A stretch of DNA of 64,000 nt from Candidatus Iainarchaeum sp. (GTDB taxonomy: Archaea; B1Sed10-29; WALL01), in the NCBI GenBank assembly GCA_021162685.1, contig JAGGYF010000028.1:4699-68698 (forward strand). Reading direction: 5' to 3'. The translations under genes and the position numbers were made by a program. Below are positions 2,978 through 63,766 of the stretch, in pieces; position 1 is the stretch's first letter, and each line of letters begins with the position of its first letter. Below the pieces are notes generated by a model, which was given only the letters and a program-made list of their open reading frames with translations, made no database searches and had not been told where the DNA came from.

Positions 2978-3703
2978 GTGGTTGATATGGGAAGACCAAT
3001 TGGAACACAAAAGAGAGGAAAAGGAAGTCACAGATACAGGAGACCATCTCATAGATACAAAACTGAAGCACATTATAGGCCAAACAATGGAGGCATACTA
3101 AAAGGGGTTATAACAGGATTTGACCATGACCCATCAAAAACAGCAATACTCATGAAAGTAAAATGGCAGGATGGAAACGAGAGCTTATATCTCGCACCAG
3201 AAGGAGTATTTGTAAATGATATGATTGAGCAAGGAGCAGGCGCTTCATTATCCATTGGTAATGTTCTTCCTTTATCAGAAATACCAGAAGGAATGCCTGT
3301 ATTCAACATAGAAAAGGTTCCTGGAGATGGAGGAACAATAGTTAGAGCATCTGGAACAGCAGCATTCGTCATTGCAAAGAAGGGTGACAAGGTCATTGTG
3401 AGGTTACCCTCAAAGAGGATGAAACCTCTTGATGGAAAGTGCAGGGCAATGATTGGGATTGTTGCTGGTGGTGGAAGGACAGAGGAACCATTCGTAAAAG
3501 CAGGGAATAAATACCACAGAGAAAGAGCAAAGGGGAAGAGGTATCCAATTGTTAGAGGAGTTGCAATGAACCCAGTTGCGCACCCACATGGTGGTTCCCA
3601 ACACCACACTGGAAAAGCAACAACAGTGAAGAGGCAAACACCACCTGGAAGAAAGGTTGGACATATAGCAGCAAGAAGAACAGGAAGGAGAAAGAGGAAG
3701 TGA
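2978..3703 (+). CDS. rpl2: 50S ribosomal protein L2
   Basis: [13 protein letters not shown]..., HPHGG motif ([12 protein letters not shown]). Confidence 0.95.
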
Positions 3704-3707
3704 GAAT

Positions 3708-4091
3708 ATGGCAAAGGTATTTACATTCCATGGAAAAACAATGGATGAACTTAAGGATATGCCTATTGAGGAATTTATGAAGTTAGTTCCATCAAGGCAG
3801 AGAAGATCCCTGAAAAGAGGATTCACAGATGAACAGGAGAAATTCCTAAAAAAATTGAGGAAATATCCTGATAAGATCATACGAACGCATTGCAGAGACA
3901 TGATTATATTACCAGAAATGGTTGGAAGAAAGATTGCAGTCTATAATGGTAAAGAATTTGTTTATATTACAATCCAGCCAGAGATGTTGGGGCATTACCT
4001 TGGTGAGTATGCTCACACAAGAAAACCTGTTAAGCACTCCGCAGCAGGTATTGGTGCTACAAGAAGTACAAAATTCATAGCAGCGAAGTGA
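3708..4091 (+). CDS. rps19: 30S ribosomal protein S19
   Basis: S19p/S15e family ([26 protein letters not shown]). Confidence 0.9.
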
Positions 4092-4095
4092 TAAC

Positions 4096-4530
4096 ATGGC
4101 AAGAAAATATAGTGCTCAAGGTATTGAAGGTGCAAGGGCGTATGGAAGAGAGATGGATATCTCTCCAAAACATGCCATAGAGATATGCAGAGAGATCAGA
4201 GGAAAAAACGTGAATAAGGCTATTACATTCCTTGAGAAGGTCATAAAGAAGGAGGCATTTGTTCCATTCAAACGATTCAATAGCAAGGTTGCACACAGAA
4301 AAGGCGGTAAACCAGGAAGATATCCTGTTAAGGCATCAAAAGCGATATTGAAAGTGCTTGAGAATGCAAAAGCAAATGCTGAGAACCAAGGGATGGACAC
4401 TGATAAACTCATGATAGTACATGCAGCTGCTCATAGGGGCCCTGTATATGATAGAAGGGCACCAAAGGGGAGGATGAGAACATCTGCCATAGAAACCGTA
4501 AATGTTGAAATAATTGTAAAGGAGGCCTGA
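4096..4530 (+). CDS. rpl22: 50S ribosomal protein L22
   Basis: L22/L17e family; conserved position after S19. Confidence 0.9.
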   Translation: MARKYSAQGIEGARAYGREMDISPKHAIEICREIRGKNVNKAITFLEKVIKKEAFVPFKRFNSKVAHRKGGKPGRYPVKASKAILKVLENAKANAENQGMDTDKLMIVHAAAHRGPVYDRRAPKGRMRTSAIETVNVEIIVKEA

Positions 4531-16633: not shown

Positions 16634-16715
16634 TAGAGCAAAACACAAAAGGTATGAGGTTTCGGGATACACCTGCTACTACCATAGAAATCATTGAAGC
16701 TGGGGTCGCATAGGC

Positions 16716-16764
16716 CCAAATTACATATGGGCGTTCGTAGTGGGATACAAGATCCCACTATTAG
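16716..16764 (+). repeat. conserved structured element C1: CCAAATTACATATGG-GCGTTCGTA-GTGGGAT/ACAAG/ATCCCAC hairpin-TATTAG
   Basis: Near-identical copies at 36438-36480 and 36553-36603; the copy 3 hairpin differs by compensatory changes; lies about 10 nt upstream of tRNA-Ser. Confidence 0.6.
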
Positions 16765-16774
16765 AAAACCATAA

Positions 16775-16858
16775 GCTGGGGTCGCATAGCCTGGTAGTGC
16801 GCAGGCCTGGAGAGCCTGTTTCCTTCGGGATGCGTGGGTTCAAATCCCACCCCCAGCG
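16775..16858 (+). tRNA. tRNA-Ser (anticodon GGA)
   Basis: Manual fold: acceptor GCUGGGG/CCCCAGC, D-stem GCAU/GUGC, anticodon stem CAGGC/GCCUG with loop CUGGAGA, 15-nt variable arm with UUCG tetraloop, T-arm GUGGG-UUCAAAU-CCCAC, discriminator G. Confidence 0.85.
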
Positions 16859-16952
16859 CTCTACTACTGGAGCTAATAGCGCCAAGAGAACCAAAAGCAA
16901 TATAAACAATTATTGTATAAACTTATAACGTATAATTTTATAAGGTGATTGA

Positions 16953-17225
16953 ATGGCAACTGCTCAGCAAGTACTGCATTATCCAAGGCTTGACACCGTG
17001 CTCATGATAGAAGATGCAATAAAGAAGGCAGGGGAGTATCCAACGAAAACACAACTGTGGAGAAGCCTTCCGAGGCAGGTGATGTACCGCACCTTCAACC
17101 TAGTTCTTGATTACTTGGAAAGTTCTGGGAAGATTTTGATTGACACAGATGGGAGGATTGTCTGGGTGTTTGCCGACAACCCAAAGCTCAGGAAACTTAT
17201 CAAGGAAAGTGTGAAGGTGCGCTGA
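16953..17225 (+). CDS. putative antitoxin (small protein co-oriented and overlapping the downstream toxin gene)
   Basis: 90 aa; stop overlaps the start of the RelE/ParE-like ORF in classic TA arrangement; preceded by TATA-like tataattttataagg and SD ggtga. Confidence 0.5.
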   Translation: MATAQQVLHYPRLDTVLMIEDAIKKAGEYPTKTQLWRSLPRQVMYRTFNLVLDYLESSGKILIDTDGRIVWVFADNPKLRKLIKESVKVR

Positions 17226-17569
17226 TGTACAGCGTGAAGCTGAGCCCAGAATTCAACAAAGAGTTTGCGAAGCTGCAGCAAAGAGCAGAGAAAGGTGGCG
17301 GAGAGGCCACTTATCTCATGAAAATAGTCAACAAAGGAATCTCAAGGATTGCCACGAAACTCACTGTAGGAAAGAAAGTTCCCAAAAAGCTCTGGCCAAA
17401 AGGATACATCAAAAAGTATGGCATAACTAACCTCTGGAAACTGGACTTGGACAAGCACTGGCGGATGCTTTACACGATAACCGGAGACCAGGCAGAACTC
17501 ATTGGAATCGTTCTGGATGTTATGGACCACAAGAAGTACGATAGGAAATTTGGGTACAAGACCAGCTAA
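17225..17569 (+). CDS. RelE/ParE-family toxin-like protein
   Basis: C-terminal pattern LWKLDLDKHWRMLYTITGDQAELIGIVLDVMDHKKY resembles the RelE/YoeB/ParE core (W/RxxY...Y.V..D...I....H..Y). Confidence 0.55.
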   Translation: MYSVKLSPEFNKEFAKLQQRAEKGGGEATYLMKIVNKGISRIATKLTVGKKVPKKLWPKGYIKKYGITNLWKLDLDKHWRMLYTITGDQAELIGIVLDVMDHKKYDRKFGYKTS

Positions 17570-17703
17570 CTCTTGGCACCGCTATACGGCATAGCGTAGC
17601 ACCTGGCAATTTTCCCATAAAATTGCGTGCCCCAGCGCTCTTTAAAGAACGTAATTCAATATAAATTGTTACAAATTATGATTGGTGGTGGAATGACCCA
17701 GGT

Positions 17704-17938
17704 TGTCGTAACACTAAACAAGGAACTAGATAAAGTAGTGGGCATAATTAAAAGCATGTACGGTTTCTCATCCAAGAACAAAGCAATACAATTCATAATC
17801 AGGAGGGAAGCTGAGGAGCTTCTTGAGAAAGAACTAAGACCTGAGTTCGTGCAGAGGATATTGAGGTTGGAGAGAACTGGTAGGTTTAAGAAGTATGCTT
17901 CTTTAGATGAATTAAGGGATGAGGTAGAGTATGCATAA
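17704..17938 (+). CDS. small ribbon-helix-helix-like DNA-binding protein (orphan antitoxin-like)
   Basis: MTQVVVTLNKELDKVVGIIKSMYGFSSKNKAIQFII is an RHH-like N-terminus; start taken at the internal ATG because the upstream part of the ORF covers the direct repeat. Confidence 0.4.
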
Positions 17939-18113
17939 GCTTAGTTAAATTCTACGACTTTGACCACCATGATAAGGTGTATAAGAAGTAAATGCTCAAT
18001 TTGTATCACTACTAGGGACGGTCCACAGCGCTCTACTGTTGGATTTTTCAAATATAATTGCAATGCAACTGTTTCCCAAATATATTTAAATACTATTACA
18101 TAGGAAAAAACTG

Positions 18114-36314: not shown

Positions 36315-36433
36315 GCGGGGGTGCCGGAGCCTCCCTCGTGCCTTCATTGGCACGAAGGCTCAAGTGGTCAAACGGGCAGGATTGAGGGTCCTGTGGCTTA
36401 GTGCCTGCGCGAGTTCGAAGCTCGTCCCCCGCA
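36315..36433 (+). tRNA. tRNA-Leu (anticodon GAG) with a roughly 30-35 nt intron in the D-loop (non-canonical position)
   Basis: Acceptor GCGGGGG/CCCCCGC, anticodon stem CAGGA/UCCUG with loop UUGAGGG, long variable arm, T-arm GCGAG-UUCGAAG-CUCGU, discriminator A; the extra segment containing hairpin CCCUCGUGCC-UUCAUU-GGCACGAAGG lies between D-stem strands at about 36330-36361. Confidence 0.75.
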
Positions 36434-36662
36434 CTGACCAAATTACATATGGTCGTTCGTGGTGGGATACAAGATCCCACTTACAGCAGGAGGGGGTGTG
36501 GAATCCGAGGGTTTCCAGGGGGAACCTGGGTTCCCCATAAAGGACGCTCTGACCAAATTACATATGGTCGTTCGTGGTGTGGCATAAAGCCACACTATTA
36601 GAGGGGGATGTGCCCCCATAAAGGACGCTCTTCGAAGCTCGTCCCCCGCACTGACCAAATTA
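36434..36662 (+). repeat. tRNA-Leu-proximal repeat array: two tandem units (C-element + GC hairpin + ATAAAGGACGCTCT) ending in a 32-nt duplicate of the tRNA-Leu 3' end
   Basis: Unit A 36434-36550, unit B 36551-36631; C-elements at 36438-36480 and 36553-36603; ATAAAGGACGCTCT at 36537-36550 and 36618-36631; TTCGAAGCTCGTCCCCCGCACTGACCAAATTA at 36414-36445 and 36631-36662. Confidence 0.7.
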
Positions 36663-36709: not shown

Positions 36710-37006
36710 ATGATATCAAAAAAGATTGCGAAGACAAAACTTGGAAAGGAAATAAAGAAACGCATGGAAAAGAGCAGAAAGAACAAGGCAGAAGTAAACA
36801 TAGGTAAGATTGCGAAGTATACAAAAAAAGGCGATAAGGTTGTGGTCGTTGGAAAGGTCCTGGGCATGGGTAGTATAAGTCATGCTGTAACTGTTGCTGC
36901 TCTAGCCTTTTCAAAATCTGCAAAAGAAAAGATAGAGAAGGCAGGGGGAAAAGCGATCCGTATACATGAACTTGAAGAAACAAAGGGAGTTAAATTGATG
37001 GCATGA
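36710..37006 (+). CDS. rpl18e: 50S ribosomal protein L18e
   Basis: L18e family; conserved position before L13. Confidence 0.85.
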   Translation: MISKKIAKTKLGKEIKKRMEKSRKNKAEVNIGKIAKYTKKGDKVVVVGKVLGMGSISHAVTVAALAFSKSAKEKIEKAGGKAIRIHELEETKGVKLMA

Positions 37007-63635: not shown

Positions 63636-63766
63636 AGCCCCGTAGTCTAGTGGCCAAGGATGCAGGCCTTTGGAGCCTGCGACGGCGGTTCGAAAATGAG
63701 GAACCTCCAGCGGGTTCCTCATCCACCTCCAGCAACCACTGGAGTTCGAAAATCCGCCCGGGGCTA
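63636..63766 (+). tRNA. tRNA-Gln (anticodon UUG) with a roughly 56-nt intron inside the T-loop (non-canonical position)
   Basis: Acceptor AGCCCCG/CGGGGCU, D-stem GUCU/GGAU, anticodon stem CAGGC/GCCUG with loop CUUUGGA, T-stem GGCGG/CCGCC; the T-loop is interrupted, with GTTCGAAAAT repeated at 63688-63697 and 63744-63753. Confidence 0.7.

Follow-up and report, generated by a model that had tools for sequence, protein, structure and literature searches.

The 64,000-nucleotide stretch analyzed here (the window; Candidatus Iainarchaeum sp., GenBank assembly GCA_021162685.1, contig JAGGYF010000028.1, positions 4,699 to 68,698 of the forward strand) contains three copies of a repeated element, termed the C-element, that is approximately 50 bases long and comprises two hairpins. 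From the sequence we infer, giving the reading about even chances of being right, that the C-elements would be the conserved core of miniature non-coding elements of 59, 115, and 80 bp that lack an integrase and are integrated in tRNA genes. The initial annotation of the window had named an att-type (attachment-site) recombination site of a tRNA-targeting element among its candidate roles, and this is the role that the sequence supports, perfect repeats of tRNA ends being found around every copy. The evidence comes from three copies in one genome fragment, a gene-dense piece of archaeal chromosome with genes for ribosomal proteins L3/L4/L2, SecY, Cbf5, RpoD, L18e, L13, S2, aIF2-gamma, and aIF5B. 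The next closest RpoD outside the organism itself is 56% identical to that of the window, therefore no close relative is available for comparison.

The whole window contains three exact matches to the 15-mer CCAAATTACATATGG, at 16716, 36438, and 36553, always on the + strand, while simple arithmetic predicts ~1e-4 chance occurrences of one exact 15-mer over 128 kb (two strands). These matches bear out the three motif positions given in the initial annotation, each followed by a 7-bp hairpin, and the hairpins themselves read as it described them (GTGGGAT-ACAAG-ATCCCAC in copies 1 and 2, GTGTGGC-ATAAA-GCCACAC in copy 3). Its placement of the copies relative to the tRNA genes was also correct, since copy 1 ends 10 nt before the start of tRNA-Ser(GGA) and copy 2 starts 5 nt past the discriminator of tRNA-Leu(GAG); the TATTAG said to trail the hairpin is present behind copies 1 and 3 and missing behind copy 2. 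Every copy is oriented in sense to its tRNA. Copies 1 and 2 are identical at 42 of 44 positions (blastn), and copies 2 and 3 at all 31 positions up to the second hairpin. The C-element is not an assembly artefact, because independent ENA contigs from three samples carry both loci in a form identical to the window.

The tRNA-Ser locus carries the first of the direct repeats that enclose the elements. A displaced 5′ fragment of the tRNA gene, AA followed by positions 1-15 (AAGCTGGGGTCGCATAG), is located at 16697..16713 on the + strand and constitutes the left copy of a 17-bp repeat (repeat search, 100% identical, spacing 76), whose right copy (16773-16789, +) runs into the intact tRNA-Ser(GGA) gene at 16775-16859 (ARAGORN; Rfam tRNA 57.2 bits), the two together spanning 16773..16859. 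The repeat thus consists of the two bases upstream of tRNA-Ser(GGA) and its positions 1-15, is identical at 17/17 positions, and has an arithmetic chance expectation of ~4e-4 for the whole window; a degenerate upstream extension of it was rejected (p = 0.18). Between the two copies lies C-unit 1, a 59-bp insertion (16714..16772, +; minimum free energy -22 kcal/mol, z -5.09, 82.4 bits), which is composed of hairpin 1 (16714-16732), the linker GTTCGT, hairpin 2 (16740-16758, extending to 16737-16761 with G.U), TATTAGA, and CCAT(AA) as the right-end motif (16769-16772). Two ENA contigs from two samples start at these repeats, L018 at window position 16702 and L020 at 16789, that is inside or just past the 17-bp copies. 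Since the 17-bp repeat is shorter than usual assembly k-mers, these contig starts may mean that some members of the population have the 59-bp insert and others lack it.

The second locus is built on the 3′ end of tRNA-Leu(GAG), an intact gene (36315..36433, +) that begins 3 nt past the RpoD stop codon. It is missed by both ARAGORN and Rfam because of a ~33-nt D-loop intron (about 36331-36363); the gene was read by eye, from folding, and from comparison with locus L003 of a relative, where an intron-less tRNA-Leu(GAG) after RpoD confirms its identity. A 32-bp repeat, TTCGAAGCTCGTCCCCCGCACTGACCAAATTA, starts exactly at T54 of the T-loop of this tRNA and reaches through its 3′ end and 12 nt of trailer (36414..36445, +; repeat search, 100%, spacing 217). 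Its right copy, a displaced tRNA-Leu 3′ fragment with trailer (36631..36662, +; repeat search), is identical at 32/32 positions, and the arithmetic chance expectation of such a repeat is ~1e-12 for the whole window. Two units stand here in tandem, each opening with a C-element and closing with CCCCATAAAGGACGCTC. C-unit 2 (U1, 115 bp; 36436..36550, +; direct repeats, z -2.38, 78 bits) contains hairpin 1 (36436-36454) and hairpin 2 (36462-36480), followed by a structured, G-rich tail and by the right end CCCCATAAAGGACGCTC (36533-36549). C-unit 3 (U2, 80 bp; 36551..36630, +; direct repeats, z -3.92, 80.6 bits) contains hairpin 1 (36551-36569), hairpin 2 with a variant stem (36577-36595), hairpin 3 (GGGGG-ATGTG-CCCCC, 36603-36617), and the right end at 36614-36630. 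The two differ in the hairpin-2 stem, in a few bases after it, and in ~31 bases that U1 has in addition, inside a third G/C hairpin. Behind the displaced fragment comes native downstream sequence and then L18e (36710-37006, Pfam L18e). In the nearest available relative locus, L003, which is very distant (RpoD 53% identical), RpoD, tRNA-Leu, and L18e follow one another without a C-element and without a tRNA fragment.

All three units share one order of parts, i.e., hairpin 1, GTTCGT, hairpin 2, TATTAGA or a variant of it, an optional hairpin 3, and CCATAA(A)G. They differ only in the segment between CCATAA and CCAAATT, and this segment matches the local tRNA. Judged by this shared architecture the three units are homologous over their whole length, and would therefore have been spread or duplicated as miniature units rather than produced by three independent deletions. 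Terminal inverted repeats are absent from the units beyond a 5-bp TATGG/CCATA, and no conserved open reading frame (ORF) was found in the 59-115 bp; from an internal ATG, copy 3 stops after seven codons.

The geometry of the tRNA fragments, with a 5′ fragment upstream of tRNA-Ser and a 3′ fragment downstream of tRNA-Leu, both on the same strand as the gene, follows the Islander rules for tRNA-targeting islands, by which 5′ fragments lie upstream and 3′ fragments downstream in the orientation of the gene (PMC4383910). At both loci an intact tRNA gene and its cognate displaced fragment bound the insert (17/17 and 32/32 bp), position and orientation of the fragment agree with the rules, and no integrase gene is present inside the units. 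The start of the T-loop, where the Leu repeat begins, is a classical crossover sublocation, archaeal pTN3-like elements use the 5′ half of tRNA genes for integration, and pT26-2-like elements switch targets within tRNA classes, e.g., class II Ser/Leu (PMC8371274). The C-unit family is found at two loci 20 kb apart, and both of its tRNAs, Ser and Leu, belong to class II. The 3′ end of tRNA-Leu is also a used archaeal att site: window positions 36403-36435 are 88% identical over 33 nt to positions 3986-4018 of Sulfolobus virus Ragged Hills (SSV-RH), the annotated att site inside its integrase gene, because both segments are tRNA-Leu 3′ ends. This was the only match in the phage records searched.

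The integration mechanism that we propose would run as follows. The attP site of an element would carry a copy of one tRNA-gene end, crossover within the shared segment would restore an intact tRNA gene, and the original tRNA fragment would end up displaced at the far end of the insert. Closing each unit into a circle would yield a P arm ending in ...CCATAA(A)G, a core equal to the local tRNA end, and a P′ arm that begins with (G/T)(C/A)CCAAATTACATATGG and holds the two hairpins; the putative cores would be the 17 bp of the Ser 5′ end, the 32 bp of the Leu 3′ end, and, between U1 and U2, a Leu 3′ end truncated to 16 bp. Integrases that are related but differ in target are organized in this manner, with P and P′ arms that are conserved and a core that varies. 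Since the same conserved arms surround a variable tRNA core in all three units, the C-element would be the P′ arm of an attP-like site, presumably recognized by a recombinase or an accessory protein supplied in trans, and kept while all cargo was lost. Before insertion the empty sites would be expected to have read CATTGAAGCTGGGGTCGCATAGCCTGGTAG at tRNA-Ser and, at the other locus, intact tRNA-Leu directly followed by ...CTGACCAAATTAAACAACC.

Integration activity is also recorded at the neighboring site, the 3′ side of the same tRNA-Ser gene, where a tandem array of gene-bearing micro-islands occupies 16851..18034 (+; repeats, Pfam). Its core, CCCCAGCGCTCT, is found at the gene end (16851-16862), at 17630-17641, and at 18023-18034 (11/12), and CAGCGCTCT occurs only three times in the window. 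The first island, E-a, is a 779-bp unit that encodes an antitoxin and a ParE/RelE-like toxin (16863-17629, Pfam), and the second, E-b, is a 393-bp unit that encodes a DUF2683 protein (17642-18022, Pfam). The E-a toxin is 78-85% identical to proteins of other Diapherotrites genomes, and in one of these genomes, the one with P0124/P0011, RpoD shares only ~52% identity with its counterpart in the window. The toxin-antitoxin pair is flanked by repeats in these relatives as well: in L019 (1870-2640) it is located between 14-bp repeats of the same core, CAGCGCTATACTAC, and the preceding cassette ends in TTGCCGTGCCCCCAGCGCT, which resembles TTGCGTGCCCCAGCGCT of the window, while in L014 (3590-4370) and L016 (3610-4450) it is placed between other, imperfect repeats. 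The unit thus seems to be a micro-island or cassette that moves horizontally between genomes, and toxin identities of 78-85% against ~52% for RpoD, together with the repeats flanking the pair elsewhere, indicate that small integrase-less islands at tRNA ends are characteristic of Diapherotrites and are exchanged in this lineage. Several further features of these loci were observed. The L019 array is composed of M78 peptidase/HTH, DUF4411, and toxin-antitoxin cassettes with recurring ...GCCGTKCCCCCA... boundaries. Contig L020 (437-772, compared with window 17225-17569) carries the toxin gene with an in-frame 9-bp deletion (111 vs. 114 aa) in an otherwise identical locus. In L014 the intergenic region upstream of the pair (3400-3660) is full of GTTGGG...CCCAAC hairpins, one of which (GTTGGGGG...GGGTGGGTTCACCCCCAACCA) resembles an acceptor-stem/T-arm minihelix; by their sequence these hairpins could be further tRNA-derived boundary elements.

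Several points weigh against integration as the origin of the C-units. Pfam revealed no recombinase domain among the 50 ORFs of the window, and the units are too small to encode an integrase. Neither an empty-site allele, nor a circular junction, nor an excision product was seen in the three ENA samples, which are identical to the window; likewise, a search for population variants by means of exact proteins returned only short ENA contigs identical to it, and the sole “empty” relative, L003, stands at the distance given above. Pattern searches for further copies in GTDB representative genomes, IMG/VR, and JGI metagenomes gave no true match: the pattern AAATTACATATGGNCGTTCG has 0 matches in the GTDB representatives and 0 in IMG/VR, and its five matches in JGI metagenomes were rejected, as they form two unrelated families with no likeness beyond the pattern. 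No match to CCAAATTACATATGGNCG or CCCCATAAAGGACGCTC was found in IMG/VR, six-frame peptides of the units gave nothing at E ≤ 10 against 5.8 billion predicted proteins, and a search of IMG/VR for a parent element by the toxin and the tRNA-Ser att core was negative. Since no further copy was found anywhere searched, no parent element is known. Furthermore, for one integrase family to act on a Ser 5′ end and a Leu 3′ end with arms that are 95% identical, very recent core swapping would be required. In sequence, the C-units and the gene-bearing islands are only weakly connected, and homology of the C-unit right end to that of the toxin-antitoxin island, considered because of TTyCCCATAAA, was rejected (p only ~0.05). 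Finally, a duplex binding site accounts less well for the compensatory changes and the + strand G.U pairs of the hairpins than does a structure formed by a single strand, either RNA or ssDNA, or templated palindrome correction.

In addition to the hairpin that had been annotated (hairpin 2), a further one, hairpin 1, was found at 16714-16732, 36436-36454, and 36551-36569, with the form G[C/A]CCA-AATTACATA-TGG[G/T]C, a 9-nt loop, and a C/A stem difference that is compensated by G/T. When the three copies are aligned from two bases further to the left, the two-hairpin structure has 15 pairs, 95.6% of the cells are paired, and four pairs are changed on both sides, one in hairpin 1 and three in hairpin 2, with none broken in the core stems; as a control, the same structure shifted by one to three columns pairs 33-58% of the cells. 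This count is based on three sequences with two hairpin-2 variants, too few for a real covariation statistic. Hairpin 2 lengthens to 10 bp through G.U pairs on the + strand in copies 1 and 3, which would become A.C on the - strand, and compared with shuffled sequences the + strand folds better (z -5.1/-2.4/-3.9 for units 1, 2, and 3) than the - strand (z -3.4/-1.5/-3.3) in every unit. Between copies 2 and 3, eight of the 19 positions of hairpin 2 differ while the adjoining 31 nt are identical, and because of this the difference looks like a block replacement or templated palindrome correction and not like gradual covariation. The initial statement that compensatory change is the signature of selection on structure was thus too strong. 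When a covariance model trained on the three copies is run over the window with filters off, it scores these copies at 78-82 bits and the next best hit at 10 bits, and it matched nothing across 11 loci of relatives (~100 kb). No Rfam family matches the C-element; in searches of 360-420-nt slices at E < 10, two intron-less tRNAs were the sole matches.

The same observations bear on the possibility, tentative and in our estimate unlikely, that the C-element acts as RNA, either as a structured leader or trailer co-transcribed with the tRNAs, as a processing signal, or as a small non-coding RNA, with selection keeping the hairpins; for example, a 5′-terminal hairpin could protect the L18e-L13-S9 mRNA after RNase Z has freed tRNA-Leu. 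The sense orientation of all copies, the better folding of the + strand with its reliance on G.U for the hairpin-2 extension, and the four compensatory pairs with none broken all favor it. Copies 2 and 3 are probably transcribed, since they belong to the RpoD-tRNA-Leu-L18e cluster, in which inspection by eye revealed nothing resembling a promoter. In L003 the spacer between tRNA-Leu and L18e (4181-4290) is also strongly structured, with three ACCATCGT repeats that form hairpins (z -4.5), in a sequence unrelated to the C-element; both genomes may share the trait of structure in this spacer. However, an RNA function leaves the perfect tRNA-fragment repeats around every copy unexplained, only three copies exist and none was found in the other genomes searched, and copy 1 would be a leader while copies 2 and 3 would be trailers, which gives no single processing logic. 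Apart from the lack of an Rfam match, inspection by eye turned up neither C/D nor H/ACA boxes, and neither a K-turn nor an oligo-T terminator. The annotated candidate role of small non-coding RNA or processing signal thus gains no support from known families or from C/D or H/ACA features, although probable transcription of copies 2 and 3 and the G.U preference for the + strand would fit it. Taken by their sequence, the small insertions bracketed by tRNA fragments read as the footprint of mobile DNA in tRNA genes, and not of a free-standing RNA gene.

A doubtful explanation, although one close to integration, is that the units are decaying, functionless relics, tRNA pseudo-fragments left by an old integration or duplication and copied by tandem duplication and gene conversion, in which the hairpins were kept perfect by templated (quasi-palindrome) correction instead of selection. 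The tandem arrangement of U1 and U2 and the block difference of hairpin 2 between identical flanks would agree with it, as would the resemblance of several parts to tRNA. The linker and hairpin 2 (16733-16761) are colinear with the variable-arm/T-arm region of tRNA-Ser (16820-16850; TCGTTCG--TG-GTGGGATACAAGATCCCAC aligned to TCCTTCGGGATGCGTGGG-TTCAA-ATCCCAC, p ~0.02-0.03 with a hairpin-aware null), the U1 tail (36510-36533) is colinear with the same tRNA-Ser region (p ~0.035; the nulls were hairpin-aware or dinucleotide), and the loop of hairpin 1, AAUUACAUA, resembles an anticodon loop (U33-NNN-R37, with UAC as the triplet). No significant similarity was found between the copy-3 hairpin and the variable arm of tRNA-Leu, or between the U1 tail and the tRNA-Leu 5′ end. 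The C-element may accordingly be of tRNA origin, which would suit an att segment derived from a tRNA, but the significance is marginal and the origin is not firm. The Rfam tRNA model gives the element no score even at E < 10. Moreover, the perfect 17- and 32-bp repeats and the 95% identity across 20 kb point to recent events and not to decay. Such relics would still need an integration-type event, so that this explanation departs from the proposed one only by denying present activity or function.

The initial annotation also considered a promoter with a structured leader. This would make the element a portable archaeal promoter, with a transcription factor B recognition element (BRE; CCAAA) and a TATA box (TTACATAT), that restores transcription of a tRNA gene which an insertion at its 5′ end has separated from its own promoter; on the sequence we regard this as highly improbable. 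Insertion at the 5′ end does part tRNA-Ser from its own upstream region, and the motif is A/T-rich, lies 47-54 nt upstream of tRNA-Ser, and faces the gene. At 5′-half att sites, promoters of the element drive the regenerated tRNAs, the promoter in pTN3-like elements being that of the integrase (PMC8371274). Nevertheless, TTACATAT, with C at position 4, agrees poorly by eye with the TTTTATAT box that precedes tRNA-Gln by 31 nt, the predicted start ~26 nt downstream would fall inside hairpin 2, the motif is the loop of a conserved hairpin with a co-varying stem that a promoter would not need, and at the Leu locus it is located behind the tRNA, inside an operon. The promoter claim is thus a weak one.

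A miniature derivative of a single-strand transposon (IS200/IS605-type palindrome-associated transposable element [PATE], IS91, or Helitron-like) or a rolling-circle origin, with hairpin ends read by an HUH enzyme, is barely credible: the subterminal hairpins with conserved structure and variable sequence, the TTAC 15 nt 5′ of hairpin 2, the ATTAC within the 9-nt loop AATTACATA, and the absence of terminal inverted repeats would fit it, but such elements insert without target duplication whereas each unit stands between target repeats of 16-32 bp, the 50 ORFs of the window include no gene for TnpA, TnpB, or Rep, and no match was found in viral contigs. Readings of the element as C/D box or H/ACA RNA, CRISPR repeat, attC, or terminator were ruled out on sequence features.

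Integration into tRNA genes, to which we return, also sets the C-units among known systems. They are like the tRNA islands of tyrosine integrases (Islander; SSV, pT26-2, pTN3-type) in that an intact tRNA gene and a displaced fragment stand in the right position and orientation, the Leu crossover starts from the T-loop, the 5′ half is used as in pTN3-like elements, tandem arrays form at one tRNA, and the targets are of class II. They are unlike them in having neither integrase nor cargo, in measuring 59-115 bp where islands are normally multi-gene, in joining 95% identical arms to the cores of two tRNAs at opposite gene ends, and in that the arm is a hairpin pair with compensatory variation. 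Streptococcal cis-mobilizable elements (CIMEs), derivatives of integrative and conjugative elements, keep both att sites, have lost their recombination genes, undergo tandem “accretion” at a tRNA site, and are presumably mobilized in trans. As CIMEs are generally described, the C-units resemble them in being bounded by att sites, integrase-less, and in tandem with other elements at a tRNA gene; CIMEs, however, are bacterial, kilobases long, and gene-bearing, whereas the C-units are archaeal and non-coding, and their mobilization in trans is only presumed. Among integrase-less, att-bounded elements, we know of none described that has such a small size or is entirely devoid of genes.

Integron gene cassettes and attC sites are also known from archaeal metagenome-assembled genomes. 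The likeness to attC lies in association with recombination, structure conserved over variable sequence, and, on the 3′ side of tRNA-Ser, tandem small cassettes, one with a toxin-antitoxin pair, without a recombinase of their own; unlike integrons, the loci have no R″/R′ core sites (RYYYAAC/GTTRRRY), no IntI, and no attI, and their boundaries are copies of tRNA-gene ends. The C-units were therefore not assigned to attC: GTTCGTR is not GTTRRRY, the RYYYAAC partner is absent, and the unit boundaries are tRNA-derived. With miniature inverted-repeat transposable elements (MITEs) the units share being miniature, non-coding, structured, multi-copy, and presumably mobilized in trans, and this class was rejected because terminal inverted repeats are lacking and the flanking repeats of 16, 17, and 32 bp depend on the target gene instead of forming a short duplication of constant length. 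Membership in the IS200/IS605-type PATEs fails as well, since the hairpins come with long target repeats and without TnpA/TnpB in the window.

The last comparison concerns non-canonical archaeal tRNA introns of the bulge-helix-bulge (BHB) type, which are found in the same genome, in the same tRNA loops (D-loop, T-loop), as structured inserts beside a duplicated UUCGAA; in folding, moreover, the T-arm copies on either side of the Leu insert pair with each other. The C-units, however, are located outside the mature tRNA, the Leu pairing, as read from the sequence, leaves a 1-nt bulge as against the 3-nt bulge of the tRNA-Gln intron, and, unlike at BHB introns, a complete copy of the tRNA gene exists, so that splicing is unneeded. 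The tRNA-Gln(UUG) in question (window 63636-63766) is missed by ARAGORN and Rfam and carries a ~60-nt T-loop intron at position 59/60, in which two UUCGAA palindromes form the central 4-bp helix of the bulge-helix-bulge with an AAU bulge. The 10-bp “direct repeat” GTTCGAAAAT around this insert was considered as a third target duplication and rejected, as UUCGAA is palindromic and its copies form the helix of the BHB intron. The TTTTATAT box is located 31 nt upstream of this gene.

If the C-units are integrated elements, they would be, to our knowledge, the smallest units that bear the full signature of site-specific integration in tRNA genes, they would be present in DPANN, a lineage from which mobile elements are almost unknown, and recombination arms could persist and spread free of genes. 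In practice, the C-element flags tRNA loci that are missed or mis-annotated by standard finders, i.e., intron-bearing genes and fragments, and it is a caution that compensatory hairpin changes in a repeated element are not proof of an RNA gene. One may go further and propose, as a speculation from sequence that we consider rather improbable, that the ends of Diapherotrites tRNA genes are landing pads for arrays of tiny integrase-less cassettes, exchanged between genomes and moved by a recombinase acting in trans. If so, the cassettes would range from 59-bp non-coding hairpin modules to promoter-bearing gene cassettes of 0.4-1.8 kb (toxin-antitoxin, DUF2683, DUF4411), and a truncated tRNA end would close each of them. 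This would amount to an integron-like system anchored on tRNA genes; the C-element would be the smallest structure-defined mobile unit, and the non-canonical tRNA introns of the same genome could have a source here. Together, the C-units and the toxin-antitoxin micro-islands that are common to distant Diapherotrites point to cassette-style exchange at the tRNA genes of very small archaeal genomes.

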